A stretch of DNA of 34,802 bases from Candidatus Altiarchaeales archaeon IMC4 (GTDB lineage: Archaea; Altiarchaeota; Altiarchaeia; IMC4), in contig MCBF01000001.1 in assembly GCA_001742785.1 (NCBI GenBank), positions 147,335-182,136 of the forward strand. The letters run 5' to 3'. Position numbers and translations under genes: made by a program. This document shows, in pieces, positions 1 through 22,877 of the stretch (the stretch's first letter is position 1; every line of letters begins with the position of its first letter). Below the pieces are notes generated by a model, which ran no database searches, had not been told where the DNA came from, and saw nothing but the letters and a program-made list of their open reading frames with translations.

Positions 1-1357
1 AACATATCTTGAACTTGTAGAAAGTTATCGAGAGAATGGAAAAGTCAAGCACATATTCAAGAAGTATCTCGGAAAAGATATCAATGGAAAACCCATAAGA
101 CGGGTAAAGACAAGCGACATAGGCGTGGAATCAGTAAAGAGATACGGAGACGTCCTATGCGTGGATAAAATAGCACAAGACCTTGGCTTGCACGAATTCC
201 TTGACAAGAACGTCCTGTTGTTGGCATATTCTCACGTTCTGGACGATGTCAGTATGAACAATATGAAGGAGTGGGTGGAGCAGACAGAAATCCCGGAAAT
301 CCTTGAACTGGATACTATCTCAACAAAGAAACTCTATGAGGCATTGGAGAACTTAGATGAAGTAGATTTCGCGCCTCTTGAAGAACGCATATACAAGAAA
401 TTTTCCAAACACGATAAAGGCAAAACAACGGTTGTTGTGGACGTCACGGACACCTATTTCGAGGGTAAGAGGGGCTCTTCATCGAAGAAAAGAAGAGGAA
501 AGGACGGGAAATACAGAAATCTCCTGCAGATATGTCTGGCTGTGACCTTGAAGCATGGCTTTCCGGTCATGCACAGGACATATGGCGGCAACGTGTCGGG
601 TATAAGAATCTTCCAAGACATGACGACAGAGTTAATATCAAGGGGCTTTGATTCGATAATAGTTGACCGAGGGGTGCGCAGCACGGAGAATATAGAAATG
701 ATGCAGGAACTTGAAATGAAGGGCATAATGGGGGTAAAGAAAATACAGAGCATCAAGGAAGGGTTTCTCGATACCCTTGTGGGGGGAGAGATATACTGCA
801 AGGACACACGCATTGTCCTGAAAAACACCACGGTTCATGCAAAAGAATTTGATTACATGGACGGCAAGCTAATCGTGGTTTACAACCCTACACTTGAGGT
901 TCAGCAAAGGGAAAACCATTATGCAAAAGGTGGAGATGATGAAGGGGCGAAATACATCGGTTACTCTCTGATATACCACAACACAGGCATGGATGTGGCC
1001 GAGGTAGTGAGACAATACTTTGAAAAAGACATTGTGGAGCGTGCATTCAAACAGATAAAGGGTGCATTATCCTTGAGACCGATTAGGATGTGGCTGAAAA
1101 GCCATGTGAACGGGCATGTAAGAGTATGTTACCTGTCATATGCCGTGCTCAGCATGCTTGCGTATCAGATCGGGGATATTGAGTTAAGCCCGCAAGATGC
1201 ACTGAAGAAACTCAAGACGAGTTATAGGGTTCATCTTAAAGACAACGAGGGCGACTTTTCATGGTCGAGGGTGGTGAATCTTGAGAAGATTCAAGACGAT
1301 ATTCTCGAAAAGGTTGGTGTAGTGGGGGAAAAAGTAGGGAAAAGTTTGTTATTGTAA
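1..1357 (+). mobile_element. Right-hand part of an IS4-superfamily (IS1634-like) insertion sequence. The left end lies outside the window and the right terminus is not mapped.
   Basis: Contains a DDE transposase ORF that runs open to the window edge. No terminal inverted repeat can be defined because the other end is missing. Confidence 0.55.
2..1357 (+). CDS. DDE transposase, IS4 superfamily / IS1634-like (5' partial)
   Basis: The frame of the 125..1357 ORF stays open back to nt 2 (TYLELVESYRENGKVKHIFKKYLGK..., a typical IS1634 N-terminal motif). Also present: VVVDVTDTYFEG (first D), IIVDRG (second D), and YFEKDIVERAFKQIK, which fits the Y(2)R/K(3)E(6)K signature. Confidence 0.75.
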   Translation, partial: TYLELVESYRENGKVKHIFKKYLGKDINGKPIRRVKTSDIGVESVKRYGDVLCVDKIAQDLGLHEFLDKNVLLLAYSHVLDDVSMNNMKEWVEQTEIPEILELDTISTKKLYEALENLDEVDFAPLEERIYKKFSKHDKGKTTVVVDVTDTYFEGKRGSSSKKRRGKDGKYRNLLQICLAVTLKHGFPVMHRTYGGNVSGIRIFQDMTTELISRGFDSIIVDRGVRSTENIEMMQELEMKGIMGVKKIQSIKEGFLDTLVGGEIYCKDTRIVLKNTTVHAKEFDYMDGKLIVVYNPTLEVQQRENHYAKGGDDEGAKYIGYSLIYHNTGMDVAEVVRQYFEKDIVERAFKQIKGALSLRPIRMWLKSHVNGHVRVCYLSYAVLSMLAYQIGDIELSPQDALKKLKTSYRVHLKDNEGDFSWSRVVNLEKIQDDILEKVGVVGEKVGKSLLL

Positions 1358-16583: not shown

Positions 16584-17351
16584 ATGGCATTCAAAGGTGG
16601 AAAAAGAAGGGCCCAAAGGGAGATGACGTCCGATGAACTGGCGGCTTCCTATGAGCAGATGATCGATACGTGGGTTCCAAAGACTGCGTTGGGTACCATG
16701 GTAAAAAAGAAAGAAATAACGAGCATGGGTGCCGTGATGGCATCGGGCATTCCTATCAAAGAGGCCGAGATAGTCGAAATGCTGCTTCCAAACATGAGTG
16801 AGGAAGTAATCAACGTCGGCAGGGTCCAGCGGACAACCGACTCGGGCCGAAGGATGCGCTTTCGCGTTACCGCCGCAACAGGCAATAATAACGGATATAT
16901 CGGGATCGGAATCGCAAAGGGTAAGGAGGTCGGCCCCACCATAAGGACTGCAATTAAAAGGGCTAAGATGAATATAAAGGAGATAAAGCGCGGCTGCGGA
17001 AGCTGGGAATGCGGCTGCGGAAACCCGCACACCGTCCCGTTCGACGTGGAAGGGGATTGCGGAAGCGTGAGGGTCAAGCTGTCTCCTGCCCCGAGGGGTG
17101 TCGGCCTTATCGGCAGCGAAACCGCAAAGAAGGTGCTGACCCTGGCCGGGGTAAGCGATGCGTGGGTAAAATCAAGCGGCCGCGCAAGAACAACGCTGAA
17201 TTATGCTTATGCGGTGCTTGATGCGCTGGTTAACACGAATTACATGAAACTTAATGAAACTGACAATAAAAACCTGAGCATCGTCCGCGGTGCCACATCC
17301 AAGAAAGAACTGAAAGCAGAAGATGATACAAAAGAACAAACCGCAGGGTAA
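16584..17351 (+). CDS. rps5: 30S ribosomal protein S5 (uS5), with a short acidic/lysine-rich C-terminal tail
   Basis: 255 aa (...VQRTTDSGRRMRFRVTAATGNNNGYIGIGIAKGKEV...APRGVGLIGSETAKKVLTLAGVSD). Confidence 0.92.
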   Translation: MAFKGGKRRAQREMTSDELAASYEQMIDTWVPKTALGTMVKKKEITSMGAVMASGIPIKEAEIVEMLLPNMSEEVINVGRVQRTTDSGRRMRFRVTAATGNNNGYIGIGIAKGKEVGPTIRTAIKRAKMNIKEIKRGCGSWECGCGNPHTVPFDVEGDCGSVRVKLSPAPRGVGLIGSETAKKVLTLAGVSDAWVKSSGRARTTLNYAYAVLDALVNTNYMKLNETDNKNLSIVRGATSKKELKAEDDTKEQTAG

Positions 17352-18003
17352 ACCGGAAAAGGTTTCGGAAAAGATTCTGACGAAAGCCGGGCCGAAAGCG
17401 GCGAGCGCGCCAAAAAAAGCAGTTGTTGCGGTTGCGCCCAAAGTAGAGTCTGTTGCAAAGGTTTCGAGGCAGAATGCGGACAAGCAAAATCGCACAGCGA
17501 TTTTGGTGTCCAAAAACTCAAAGAGTTTTGCGGACAAGCGAATCGCAATAATCCGCGTCAGGGGCAGCGTCCATCTTAGAAGCGGTATAGCCGACGCCAT
17601 GAAAATGCTGAACCTGAACCGCGTCAACCACTGCGTCGTGGTGGACAACCGCCCGCAGTACATGGGTATGATAAACAAGGCCAAGGACTACATAACCTTC
17701 GGCGAGATAAACGAGGAAACCGTGGCATCGCTTATTGCAAAGCGCGGCAGGCTCCCTGGAAACGTAAGGCTCGATGACGCTTACGTGAAAAATGCCACCG
17801 GCAAAGACATCGCAGGTTTTGCAGGCGCGTTCATGAAATTCGAAAAAGAGCTGAAAGACATCCCGGACATAAGCCCTGTTTTCCGCCTCAGGCCGCCGAA
17901 AAAGGGCCACGCAAGGGGCGGCATCAAGAAGCCGTGCTCTGTCGGTGGCGCTCTTGGGAACCGAAAAGAGAAGATAAACGACCTTCTGGCAAAGATGATA
18001 TAA
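17323..18003 (+). CDS. rpl30: 50S ribosomal protein L30 (uL30 / L7e-like), with an N-terminal K/A/P-rich extension of about 70 aa
   Basis: The conserved core starts at IAIIRVRGSVHLRSGIADAMKMLNLNRVNHCVVVDNRPQYMGMINKAKDYITFGE. The only ATG is 17323, which overlaps S5 by 29 nt. Starting at the alternative GTG 17506 would remove the extension. Confidence 0.85.
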   Translation: MIQKNKPQGKPEKVSEKILTKAGPKAASAPKKAVVAVAPKVESVAKVSRQNADKQNRTAILVSKNSKSFADKRIAIIRVRGSVHLRSGIADAMKMLNLNRVNHCVVVDNRPQYMGMINKAKDYITFGEINEETVASLIAKRGRLPGNVRLDDAYVKNATGKDIAGFAGAFMKFEKELKDIPDISPVFRLRPPKKGHARGGIKKPCSVGGALGNRKEKINDLLAKMI

Positions 18004-18032
18004 CCGCGGGGTATCCTGCACATTGTTTTTAT

Positions 18033-18079
18033 TTCTAAACAACCCCTGCCCTGCTGATGCTTACCGTTTCTATGGTAAA
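18033..18079. repeat. 47-bp direct repeat, copy 1: a relic duplicate of the 3' end of the Ca/Na antiporter gene. Copy 2 is 18159-18205.
   Basis: TTCTAAACAACCCCTGCCCTGCTGATGCTTACCGTTTCTATGGTAAA versus TTCTAAACAACCCCTACCCTGCCGATGCTTACCGTTTCTATGGTAAA, which is 45/47 identical. The two copies bracket element E. Confidence 0.9.
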
Positions 18080-18084
18080 TAACC

Positions 18085-18161
18085 TTTTTCTTTAGAAAAG
18101 AAAAATGTTAATGAAAAAGAAAAGGAATTCACCGAATTTCCGCAGAAATTCGCGTGAATTC
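18085..18161 (+). repeat. Hairpin-rich palindromic element, copy E (short form without HP1)
   Basis: TTTTTCTTT-aga-AAAGAAAAA (18085-18105). AAAAAGAAAAGG. Outer stem GAATTCAC (18125-18132) / GTGAATTC (18154-18161), enclosing C-[GAATTTC cgca GAAATTC]-GC. Confidence 0.7.
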
Positions 18162-19150
18162 TAAACAACCCCTACCCTGCCGATGCTTACCGTTTCTATG
18201 GTAAACATTACCAGTATGAAGAGGGTATAGAGCATTATCAGCCCGATTCCCTCCCGCCACGTCAGGCCTTCTTCCGAGCCAAGGAACGTCAGGAATATGA
18301 AGCCTGCCGTAAGCATGAAAAAGGCGCTGGTTATAAAAAGCAGGAACGAGCCCCCTGATAATTCAATCGGCGCGATTAATGCGCTTACCCCCAAAACAAC
18401 GGTGGAATTCGCAACAAGGGTGCCCAAGGTATCCCCGATTGCCATGTCCCCCCTGCCCATAAAAGCCGCCCTGACTCCGAATGTGAGCTCCGGCAGGGTG
18501 GTGCCGAACGATATGAGGAAAAGGGAGATAAGTATCAGCGGCAGCCCGATTTCTGTCGAGAACTCCTTTGCGAACCGTATGATAAAATCCGCGCTCACGA
18601 AAAGGATTGCAAGGCTCGCCAGAAGGGCAAGCACGCTCCACAATAACTGGCCCACCGACACCCCGTCCCGCCCGCCGTTTTCGTTAACCTTGCTGATCTT
18701 GCGGTCTTTCGTGATTAACCACATCGAATACCATAAAAACACCGCCAGAAGTACAATGCCGTCGATGCGCTCAAGTTTGCCGTTGAGCATTAATATTATC
18801 GGAACGGCCATTATCGCAAAGATGTGCATCGTATCCCTCATGTTTATGTTGCTTCCCGCGCCGACGCGCCTTGCAAGGAGGGCGACGATCCCCATGATCA
18901 TCGTGGCGTTTGCGACGTTTGACCCGATTACGTTGCCGATTACAATCTCTGGCGTCTTCTCTATAGCCGATGCTATGCCTATAGAAAGCTCGGGGATGGA
19001 CGTTGCAAACGCTATCAGGACAAACGATATGGCAAATCCGCTCATGTTGAAAAATATAGCAATGCGGCCAATGGACTTTACCATGACGTCCGCGCTTTTT
19101 ACCAGTACCGCGCACGAAACAAGCAGAAAAAACAGGTTTTCCAGCATCAT
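18161..19150 (-). CDS. Ca2+/Na+ antiporter (YrbG / CaCA family)
   Basis: Two alpha-repeats, GNVIGSNVANA and GDTLGTLVANSTVVLG, and multiple TM helices. Start placed at MMLENLFF, where its ATG overlaps the pyrB stop (TGATG). The ORF-track start at 19177 would overlap pyrB by 28 nt. Confidence 0.85.
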   Translation of the reverse strand: MMLENLFFLLVSCAVLVKSADVMVKSIGRIAIFFNMSGFAISFVLIAFATSIPELSIGIASAIEKTPEIVIGNVIGSNVANATMIMGIVALLARRVGAGSNINMRDTMHIFAIMAVPIILMLNGKLERIDGIVLLAVFLWYSMWLITKDRKISKVNENGGRDGVSVGQLLWSVLALLASLAILFVSADFIIRFAKEFSTEIGLPLILISLFLISFGTTLPELTFGVRAAFMGRGDMAIGDTLGTLVANSTVVLGVSALIAPIELSGGSFLLFITSAFFMLTAGFIFLTFLGSEEGLTWREGIGLIMLYTLFILVMFTIETVSIGRVGVV

Positions 19151-20172: not shown

Positions 20173-20886
20173 ATGAAAAAAATAGCCTTGGTGAGGGAAC
20201 TTGAAAAGTATCCTGTGTTTACCCTCGCTACCTTGCGGAGGATAATAAAAAAAGACAGGAATTACGCCAAACTGGTTATCCACAGGTTGAAGGACGAAGG
20301 GCTTGTTTTAAAAATAGAGAGAAACAGATATACCGTCCATAAGGACCCGATACTCGTGGCTTCCAACATAGTATGGCCATCATACCTGTCGTTCTGGACC
20401 GCGCTTAGATATCATAGTCTGACAGAGCAACTGCCTCAAAACATTTTTGTCATAACGCCGAGGACAAGAAAAAACAGGGATGTCGAATTCATGGGCACGA
20501 AGATATCCTTCGTAAAGGTCGGTCCGAAGTACTTTTTCGGGTTCGCGAAAGAACCGTGCCGCAACTTCACTATTTTGGTTGCACGCCCCGAAAAGGCATT
20601 GGTCGATTCGGCCCTCTTCAGGAAAATATCGTTTTCTGAGATATCAGAAATAGTAAGGGAAAACCTTGATAGAATCAGCCCTGAACTCATAGTGCAGTAC
20701 TGCCTGAAAACCAAAAACAACGCGCTGATAAAGAGGTTCGGGTTTTTGCTCGAGGCCCTCGGAGCAGATTTTCCTGAAAAGGCAGATATAAATCCGAATT
20801 ACATACCATTGGATTACGCCATGCCAAAGGAGGGAAAGAAAAACAAAAAATGGAGGATTATTGAAAACATCGAAATTGCAAAGTAA
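20173..20886 (+). CDS. abiEi: AbiEi-like antitoxin / transcriptional regulator (COG5340-type wHTH)
   Basis: 237 aa with an N-terminal winged-helix pattern (VFTLATLRRIIKKDRNYAKLVIHRLKDEGLVLKIERNRYTV). It lies 2 nt upstream of an AbiEii-type gene. Confidence 0.7.
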   Translation: MKKIALVRELEKYPVFTLATLRRIIKKDRNYAKLVIHRLKDEGLVLKIERNRYTVHKDPILVASNIVWPSYLSFWTALRYHSLTEQLPQNIFVITPRTRKNRDVEFMGTKISFVKVGPKYFFGFAKEPCRNFTILVARPEKALVDSALFRKISFSEISEIVRENLDRISPELIVQYCLKTKNNALIKRFGFLLEALGADFPEKADINPNYIPLDYAMPKEGKKNKKWRIIENIEIAK

Positions 20887-21692: not shown

Positions 21693-22877
21693 ATGAAAAT
21701 CGTGCTTGCATATTCGGGCGGTCTTGACACCAGCGTTGCGATAAAGTGGCTCAAGGAAAAATATAATTCCGAGGTCGTAACCCTGACGCTTGAGGTCGGG
21801 CAGGGTGAGAAAGACCTGAAGGCGATAGAGGAAAAGGCAAAGAAAATCGGCGCGGTAAAGACCTACAGCATCGACGCCAGAGAGGAGTTCGTCGAGGACT
21901 ACGTTTTTCCAGCGATAAAGGCGAACGCCCTGTACGAAGGCAAGTATCCGGTAAGCACTGCCATCGCCCGGCCTTTGATCGCCAAGTGGATGGTTGCTAT
22001 CGCGGAAAAAGAGGGGGCCGATGCGGTAGCGCACGGCTCGACCGGCAAGGGCAACGACCAGGTTCGCTTTGACGTTTCGGTCATGGCGCTGAACCCCCTC
22101 CTTAAGATTGTCGCCCCGATGCGGGAGTGGAAACTGACACGCGACGACTCCATCGAGTACGCGAAAAAGCACGGCATCCCGGTCCCTGCGACCAAAAAAT
22201 CCCCTTACAGCACCGACGAGAATTTGTGGGGCAGAAGCTGCGAGGCGGGAATCCTCGAGAATCCGATGAACGAACCGAAGGAGGAAGCGTACGGCTGGAC
22301 GACCGCGCCCGAGGCCGCGCCGGACAAAGCGCAGTACGTAACAATCGACTTTGAAAAGGGGGTTCCGGTAAAACTGGACGGCAAGAAGATGGGCGGCGTC
22401 GAGTTAATAACGAGGCTTAATAAAATCGGGGGAACGCACGGCATCGGACGCATAGACATGATCGAGGACCGCCTCGTGGGTATAAAAAGCCGCGAGGTTT
22501 ACGAGTGCCCGGCGGCAGATATTCTTCTTACCGCGCACAAGGAGCTCGAGCGGCTTGTCCTGACGCGCGAGGAGAACCTTTTCAAGGAGATGATCGATGC
22601 AAAATGGGCGCAGATGGCGTACTTCGGGCTTTGGTACGAGCCGTTGAAAAAAGACCTTGATGCCTTCATAGAAAAGACGCAGGAAGTGGTAACCGGAACG
22701 GTAAAGATAAAGCTCTACAAGGGGAAGGCTGCGGTAGCCGGGCGCTCATCACCCAAATCCCTTTACGACGAAGGCCTTGCGACGTACAACAAGTCTGACA
22801 AGTTCGACCACCGGCAGGCCGAGGGGTTCATAAAAATCTGGGGCTTGCCGAGCATGATTGCCGGGAAGAGGAAATAG
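21693..22877 (+). CDS. argG: Argininosuccinate synthase
   Basis: 394 aa. Motifs: MKIVLAYSGGLDTSV (PP-loop), AHGSTGKGNDQVRF, GRIDMIEDRLVGIKSREVYE. Confidence 0.95.
   Translation: MKIVLAYSGGLDTSVAIKWLKEKYNSEVVTLTLEVGQGEKDLKAIEEKAKKIGAVKTYSIDAREEFVEDYVFPAIKANALYEGKYPVSTAIARPLIAKWMVAIAEKEGADAVAHGSTGKGNDQVRFDVSVMALNPLLKIVAPMREWKLTRDDSIEYAKKHGIPVPATKKSPYSTDENLWGRSCEAGILENPMNEPKEEAYGWTTAPEAAPDKAQYVTIDFEKGVPVKLDGKKMGGVELITRLNKIGGTHGIGRIDMIEDRLVGIKSREVYECPAADILLTAHKELERLVLTREENLFKEMIDAKWAQMAYFGLWYEPLKKDLDAFIEKTQEVVTGTVKIKLYKGKAAVAGRSSPKSLYDEGLATYNKSDKFDHRQAEGFIKIWGLPSMIAGKRK

Follow-up and report, generated by a model that had tools for sequence, protein, structure and literature searches.

Elements integrated at the 3' ends of tRNA or protein genes, like their gene-less, cis-mobilizable remnants, duplicate the gene end and leave the gene intact, and the displaced copies may differ at synonymous sites, as for phage 21 in icd. 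A further class, insertion with long target duplication, is reportedly linked to Nobusato et al. (2000). In bacteria this class leaves variable, unique repeats whose lengths run from 46-47 to about 400 bp and for which no mechanism is known (Furuta et al. 2010, PMC2853133). Long, variable repeats (8-514 bp) are also made upon insertion by the insertion sequences (ISs) IS1634 and IS1549, for which no model has been proposed, while most members of their family, which is common in Euryarchaeota, make repeats of 5-6 bp (PMC2266710). Here we describe a 79-bp hairpin-forming insert lying between 47-nt direct repeats of the 3' end of a Ca/Na antiporter gene in Candidatus Altiarchaeales archaeon IMC4, within a 34,802-nt stretch that we call the window (contig MCBF01000001.1, positions 147,335 to 182,136). 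Among described categories, insertion with long target duplication comes nearest, and the repeat is probably the footprint of such an insertion by a tiny hairpin element that carries no gene.

The likeness to that class lies in repeats that often overlap a gene 3' end or a tRNA and in the absence of a mobility gene from the insert (PMC2853133); no mobility gene is found in or beside our 79-bp insert, which has no open reading frame (ORF) and whose neighbours are the antiporter gene and a ribosomal protein L30 gene. The class is recognized by genome-unique repeats longer than 30 bp, and here the repeat measures 47 nt (45/47 identical, 47/47 in one strain). However, the known inserts are kilobase-sized restriction-modification units of bacteria, defined by comparing filled and empty genomes, whereas this one is a 79-bp non-coding archaeal unit with one joint fixed at a gene boundary and no empty site for comparison. 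With IS1634 and IS1549 the locus shares long variable repeats and a genome encoding the family transposase, but the insert contains no transposase gene and its ends only loosely resemble the IS terminal repeats. The features of the locus are as follows, in window coordinates.

18033..18079, minus strand: relic repeat copy, an antiporter 3' end (last 14 sense codons, stop codon TAG and 2 nt)
18159..18205, minus strand: functional repeat copy, the true antiporter 3' end, with its stop at 18161-18163
18080..18158, plus strand: insert, 79 bp, a three-part hairpin unit without an ORF; on the minus strand (antiporter sense) T-rich runs follow the stop
18080..18110, plus strand: T-rich hairpin, TAACCTTTTTCTTT / AAAGAAAAATGTTA, starting AACC (from inverted repeat and fold)
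18111..18129, plus strand: purine-rich linker, ATGAAAAAGAAAAGGAATT (from the motif census)
18125..18161, plus strand: GAATT hairpin, GAATTCACCGAATTTCCGCAGAAATTCGCGTGAATTC, its last 3 nt inside the right-hand repeat

Direct comparison of the repeats bore out a 47-bp duplication described in an earlier note on this DNA: the copies at 18033-18079 and 18159-18205 are 45/47 identical at a start-to-start spacing of 126 nt, with mismatches at the pairs 18048/18174 and 18055/18181. The right-hand copy comprises 14 sense codons, the TAG stop codon and 2 nt past it. The relic lies downstream of the antiporter gene and is continuous with the native spacer towards the L30 gene. A search for further copies through the whole 1.39-Mb genome, which the note had proposed, found the 47-mer at these two sites only, the next best match being 14 nt. 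The flank-to-flank alignment score of the 18033/18159 pair is 42, while scores of at least 25 were reached by 4 of 897 random position pairs of equal geometry. We agree with the note that such a repeat is far longer than ordinary transposase duplications. It was also right that the two differences are non-synonymous (G/S and V/A), but not that the relic is the differing copy; comparison with GCA_017973835.1 shows that it is the functional copy of the window that differs.

The 79 bp between the repeats were confirmed as a copy of a hairpin element family and fold into two strong hairpins (-21.8 kcal/mol as single-stranded DNA, versus -6.5 for shuffles; z = -8.5). They are a complete small element and no remnant of a larger one, because all three parts recur together elsewhere in the genome and the order; the proposal that most of the integrated DNA was later lost is not borne out. 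The three-part unit is found in full at genome positions 590384-590454 and 590509-590579 (mutually identical) and 808259-808325, and as a composite with extra hairpins inserted at 701609-701785. Besides the copy in this insert, the linker motif is found at 152137, 590414, 590539, 701682, 808277, 944873, 992931 and others. Across many other families of the order Altiarchaeales there are units with 80-91% identity, often directly behind tRNA 3' ends. A search of the unit against Rfam gave a chance-level match only (19 bits against a gathering score of 45, E = 0.63). The T-rich hairpin is T-rich on both strands and adjoins the gene-internal end of the relic copy. The GAATT hairpin has the arms GAATTCACCGAATTTC-CGCA-GAAATTCGCGTGAATTC; with the TA that follows it, the element ends in TTCTA, the pentanucleotide with which both repeat copies begin. 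An IS200/IS605-derived element would be expected beside a fixed target of 4-5 nt and without a duplication; TTCTA follows the GAATT hairpin in most genome copies according to the motif census, and most of these have no flank repeats, whereas the window copy has its 47-nt repeat.

The arrangement is not confined to this locus. We scanned for direct repeats 30-700 nt apart and aligned flank against flank at all 483 hairpin clusters, and this turned up about 13 further short inserts of 60-230 bp in this genome, each bracketed by direct repeats of 18-93 bp. Flank repeats scoring at least 16 occur at 25 of 427 hairpin clusters versus 9 of 897 random places, so that the habit is about six-fold enriched at the clusters. 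The repeats nearly always include or adjoin the terminus of a gene or tRNA; the gene-contiguous copy is intact and the other copy is a relic. In oriented inserts the T-rich-motif end faces the gene-internal end of the relic and the opposite end adjoins the functional gene. At the window locus the stop codon lies within the repeat, the T-rich end is 0-4 nt from the repeat, and the outer repeat edge is 2 nt past the stop. The other flanked inserts are listed by genome start.

54208: flanked insert
188591: start codon at the repeat
324946: stop codon at or just past the repeat edge
394502: stop codon at or just past the repeat edge; T-rich end 0-4 nt from the repeat
590330 (twice): stop codon within the repeat; T-rich end 0-4 nt from the repeat
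630810: start codon at the repeat, outer repeat edge about 5-6 nt before it; T-rich end 0-4 nt from the repeat
701590: stop codon within the repeat, outer repeat edge 3 nt past it; T-rich end 0-4 nt from the repeat
738545: stop codon at or just past the repeat edge; T-rich end 0-4 nt from the repeat
808118: tRNA-like 3' end at the repeat
933229: start codon at the repeat, outer repeat edge about 5-6 nt before it; T-rich end 0-4 nt from the repeat
992809: stop codon within the repeat, outer repeat edge 1 nt past it; T-rich end farther inside
1052916: flanked insert
1132953: start codon at the repeat; T-rich end 0-4 nt from the repeat
1231518: tRNA-Phe 5' end at the repeat
796183 and 1355419: less clear flanked inserts

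The outer edge thus lies 0-3 nt past the stop at several loci. At all three loci with the unit behind a gene 3' end (window, 701 kb, 590 kb) it is TAGAA in the gene sense, the same as the terminal pentamer of the element, and the relic copies there start with TTCTA. These regularities suggest that one joint is directed by sequence or boundary and that the other is variable. In other families, flanked copies were found with a perfect 47-bp repeat (genome G018), with 19 bp (G030), and with 18 bp of a tRNA 3' end (G026). A second young locus is 933229, which has a perfect 50-bp repeat and whose insert is present in every assembly; one contig loses synteny there within the hairpin array, possibly through a repeat-induced misjoin.

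Comparison of strains bears on the timing of the event and on which copy differs. The repeat-insert-repeat arrangement was found with the same spacing in five independent assemblies: GCA_017973795.1, GCA_017973895.1 and GCA_017973835.1, which are metagenome-assembled genomes (MAGs) at NCBI, and Logan and ENA k127 MEGAHIT assemblies of run ERR628383. The gap between the antiporter and L30 genes is 157 nt in all of them, an identical antiporter protein is recorded in their contigs, and in alignment the insert and the relic copy are identical in every assembly. In GCA_017973835.1 the gene copy has the two bases of the relic, which makes the repeat 47/47, and these two gene-copy positions are the sole difference across the compared stretch. 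The relic allele (..ISRAGVV) is therefore the functional allele of a sister strain, and since the relic equals a living allele, it is the functional copy of the window (..IGRVGVV) that differs. Strains diverge by 0.1-0.65% across the 7-kb locus, with differences bunched at window positions 20379-20505, 20755-20835, 21863-21950 and 22019-22031, some at exact 3-nt spacing; the pattern is what short-tract recombination with diverged alleles would leave. Because strain differences cluster in this way, the two changes in the functional copy (18174 and 18181, 7 nt apart) were probably brought in by one short recombination tract. The best reading is that the insertion became fixed in the species before the sampled strains diverged. 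The comparison of related strains suggested earlier thus revealed neither an unduplicated version nor a larger insert, all five assemblies carrying the 79 bp.

Other relics also appear to preserve former alleles. The terminal 18 codons of a minus-strand gene (..NYIGTAVEQVENVLRKIK*) are found three times at 590330-590633, split by the two identical units of 71 bp. The copies differ at 7-11 of 54 nt, yet the encoded 18-residue peptide is the same in all three; the outer pair, counted base by base, has 10 differences, all synonymous. Random decay of the relics is ruled out for this array by the constant peptide, and the copies would have been functional while diverging. Judging from its tail, the gene resembles that of adenylosuccinate lyase, and the locus adjoins a scaffold gap. 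At 630810 and 1132953 the homology extends outside the perfect core, where the differences fall mostly on third codon positions. Most economically, the relics would stand still while short recombination tracts overwrite the functional copy again and again; alternatively, repair would have imported sequence from a diverged template.

Under the reading that we favour, insertion with long target duplication, the antiporter and L30 genes would originally have converged on a 31-nt spacer. The GAATT-hairpin end would have been set 2 nt past the antiporter stop, at TAGAA, which is also the element's own terminal pentamer, and the opposite end (AACC) would have joined 45 nt inside the gene, so that the 47 nt between the joints came to stand on both sides. 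The gene-contiguous copy would keep the gene whole, and the outer copy would be a non-functional fossil of the gene end. The repeat would have been perfect at first, as it still is in one sister strain, with the functional copy of the window lineage changing later at two sites. Two routes can be envisioned. A transposase might make staggered nicks, with 18-98 nt between those on the two target strands, as has been reported of IS1634/IS1549; or the element might be copied from a template that bears it, synthesis halting at the hairpins and the end being joined without homology. We infer that the insert and the duplication arose from one event.

Several candidate movers are resident. A transposase of the IS1634 family (NF033559, 166 bits; cut-off 100) is encoded at least six times, fragments included. 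One copy occupies window 1-1357 (genome 147335-148691), its left part lost in a scaffold gap, and another lies past the window end at genome 182244-183168; assembly breaks caused by the IS thus delimit the window. The IS200/IS605 group is represented by one intact-looking tnpA (about genome 20607-21000) plus fragments. An element derived from this group was rejected: the resident hairpins CTGCGGGCTTTAGCCCGCAG and CCGCCGACTTCAGTCGGCGG, the ends, and the target (..TCATTAC) are unlike the two hairpins of our insert. Two tnpA copies, at 1305388-1305767 and 1341154-1341713, are themselves broken by hairpin-element sequence, one apparently in frame. No match to reverse transcriptase (PF00078) was found in the genome, which is 90% complete and gave positive controls, which speaks against a retroelement of the target-primed kind resembling short interspersed nuclear elements. 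Duplication of the type made by Cas1 at clustered regularly interspaced short palindromic repeats was rejected because the repeats vary in length (18-93 bp) and in view of how large the inserts are.

A number of observations weigh against insertion with long target duplication as the explanation. The element ends, TAACCTTTTTCTTT.. and ..GAATTCTA, do not match each other as inverted repeats. As for descent from the resident IS1634-family element as a miniature inverted-repeat transposable element (MITE), the terminal repeat of the IS1634-like elements is CCTAACTTTTCCCTACTTTTTCCCCCACTAC (CCTAACTTTTCCCTAC..), to which the TAACCTTTTTCTTT end of the insert is loosely alike (about 11/15 by eye) and the GAATTCTA end not at all, which counts against such an origin. 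Every IS1634-family copy is interrupted by an N-gap or truncated, so that their own duplications are unreadable. An empty site was looked for and none was found, all five assemblies of the species being filled; and the closest antiporter relative is only 45% identical. A single-step origin is thus something we infer. Detectable flank repeats accompany only about 5% of hairpin clusters, meaning either that an insertion can do without the long duplication or that the majority of copies are of old date. Long repeats are found around two or more mutually unrelated types of short insert, and a host process therefore fits better than a single transposase. The unit stands without a relic at an orthologous tRNA in two other families (loci L053 and L059), and duplication may therefore postdate residence. 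Copies at three loci differ mostly at synonymous sites, and a simple duplication therefore needs later replacement of alleles.

Repair or slippage tied to the palindromic element, which the earlier note gave as an alternative, is a live rival to transposition. Suppose that the element stood behind the stop in another lineage or chromosome copy, with no duplication at first. A break in the gene of an element-free chromosome would be repaired by leftward copying of gene end and element from that template, stopping at the hairpins, followed by homology-free joining to the other broken end, and the repeat length would equal the distance from break to element. Such import alone, which we hold to be rather unlikely, would account for the 590-kb copies, with the same 18 residues, 7-11/54 nt differing and the checked pair 10/10 synonymous, and for the extended, mostly third-position homology at 630810 and 1132953. 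It would also suit the short tracts of imported diverged sequence in the population, the restriction of repeats to a minority of element copies, the relic-free units at the orthologous tRNA (L053, L059), and the finding that bacterial long target duplications come mostly from naturally competent species (PMC2853133). However, a foreign template is superfluous at the window locus, where the repeat shows no diverged extension and one strain has it perfect; element-bearing and element-free alleles would have to coexist, and none were observed; the synonymous differences are equally explained by later short-tract allele replacement; and no instance of ends joined at hairpins was directly observed. 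We give still less weight to slippage or template switching at a resident palindromic element without mobility, in which a stalled fork would have re-copied 47 nt. The strong hairpins speak for it, as does their abundance (about 1,569 perfect hairpins of at least 8 bp in the genome versus 125 in a shuffle), and the 5-nt TTCTA identity between element end and relic start, at the window and two further loci, could be a microhomology for re-priming. But slippage between TTCTA sites would give a tandem of gene end plus element, and the element is present once; slippage also leaves unexplained why, at the oriented loci, one particular insert end faces the internal end of the relic and why flanked copies of the unit occur in other genomes at unrelated sites.

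Site-specific integration of a larger element by a tyrosine recombinase, with nearly all of it deleted afterwards and 79 bp left between attachment (att) sites attL and attR, appears very improbable to us; site-specific integration, with loss of most of the DNA as a possibility, was the reading preferred in the earlier note. A length of 47 bp is typical of archaeal att sites. The topology also stands: the gene end is duplicated and the gene preserved, and tRNA-end duplications of like kind exist, with the same layout at two tRNA genes, a classic target of integration. What falls is the single cause, one integrase with one att site, because a separate att specificity would be required for each of about 13 loci, whose repeats (18-93 bp) are unrelated, and no common att core is found across them. 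The integrase search that had been suggested did recover two tyrosine recombinase genes (PF00589), the only ones in the genome, but they lie at 909 kb and 1,255 kb, about 745 kb and 1.09 Mb from the insert, and no recombinase gene is beside it. The 79 bp, moreover, are a complete recurrent unit, and a larger insert is seen in none of the five assemblies. That the duplication is an artefact, the assembler having collapsed or unrolled strain variants or a repeat, is barely credible. The genome is indeed a scaffolded MAG with N-gaps, and several other repeats adjoin such gaps. Yet there is no gap near the antiporter/L30 locus, the insert and relic are base-for-base alike in five assemblies from differing pipelines and samples, and one of these was made at k = 127, above the 126-nt repeat period; that agreement speaks against the doubt raised earlier on this score.

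MITEs, repetitive extragenic palindromic (REP) sequences and the bacterial interspersed mosaic elements, Correia elements and Rickettsia palindromic elements are, like the insert, short, non-coding, hairpin-forming, modular, multicopy and mostly intergenic, and Ca. Altiarchaeum hamiconexum is reported to have the highest density of conserved MITEs among archaea (PMC11602168). However, a classical MITE has inverted ends that match and a short duplication of fixed size (2-10 bp), neither of which holds for the insert, and REPs and IS200/IS605-derived elements make no duplication, whereas the insert has one of 47 nt. Elements bounded by attL and attR differ in that here there is no integrase and no single att, repeats of 18-93 bp lie at unrelated targets, and what they enclose is a complete unit of 70-230 bp. 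The tRNA-linked repeats of Escherichia coli are short units directly downstream of tRNA or rRNA genes, each ending in an 18-19-bp copy of the upstream 3' end; they are bacterial, belong to stable-RNA operons, have an unrelated sequence and include some expressed small RNAs, whereas our units lie mostly at the ends of protein genes (PMC8144298).

The genes beside the insert, and their native spacer, are as follows.

18161..19150, minus strand: Ca/Na antiporter gene (PF01699), 329 aa as called; ORF open to 19177
17323..18003, plus strand: ribosomal protein L30 gene (Pfam Ribosomal_L30), convergent with the antiporter gene
18004-18034: native spacer, 31 nt, with a terminator-like stem (18006-18019) plus T-run, for L30

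The antiporter gene is intact despite the insert. Its C-terminal tail (15 residues, 14 of them encoded by the repeat) aligns with homologue C-termini, and the gene is therefore neither truncated nor extended. From the sequence, the insert likely provides the antiporter transcript with T-rich termination signals, which the native spacer does not have on that strand.

We further note some peculiar arrangements of hairpin units. (i) The unit lies directly behind tRNA 3' ends at five loci in relatives (L048, L052, L053, L059 and L060) and at genome 808259-808342; it keeps 80-91% identity across families whose proteins are far more diverged, and one of the tRNA positions is orthologous. (ii) At L050 (G003:C1:29300-30400) and L057 (G010:C15:3600-4700), in two other families, a hairpin unit stands between the 5' and 3' halves of apparent tRNA genes; these units may be borne by introns. 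(iii) ARAGORN called only 18 tRNA genes in the 1.39 Mb, and it is probable that many tRNA genes are split, carry introns or have been broken up by elements. (iv) At 1231518-1231673 a stretch made up of the initial 27 nt of tRNA-Phe and the 5 nt before them has a second copy 124 nt away; the insert there is 92 bp and of a different hairpin type (GTGCACGGAGCTAGCCGTGC), with similar inserts at 796229-796288 and 325039-325107. (v) Contig JAEMOK010002293.1 of GCA_017973835.1 (L036) bears at 1951-2400 a relic of an acetyl-CoA-synthetase-like 5' end and the start of a hairpin array behind purE, and then runs into other genes, a nucleotidyltransferase/HEPN pair. This break of synteny inside the array is possibly a rearrangement or a repeat-induced misassembly.

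Taken jointly, the flanked inserts might reflect a habit of the structured hairpin unit whereby one sequence-directed end is placed at a gene or tRNA boundary, 0-3 nt past a stop or about 5 nt before a start, a proposal that we make tentatively. With the same reserve, the free joint could fall 18-98 nt inside the gene, the gene end being always rebuilt and the relics persisting as dated fossil alleles, a record of former gene states in a population whose alleles turn over through short-tract recombination. It is conceivable, though we would not call it probable, that this amounts to an undescribed mode of DNA insertion in Altiarchaeales, one that no DDE transposase with matching ends, integrase or reverse transcriptase explains.

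A dozen tiny, gene-sparing insertions of the same geometry offer a compact system for the puzzle of long variable duplications, a recognised one for IS1634/IS1549 and for insertions of restriction-modification genes (PMC2266710, PMC2853133), and a fixed boundary joint combined with a variable gene-internal joint already constrains models. Relic gene ends look like att sites, small ORFs or pseudogenes, which matters for the annotation of archaeal MAGs. As earlier alleles, of which the relic described here, equal to the living allele of a sister strain, is an example, they could serve to order events in uncultivated archaeal populations. The unit itself, which is T-rich on both strands and is found where genes converge and behind tRNAs, may be a portable terminator that works in both directions.

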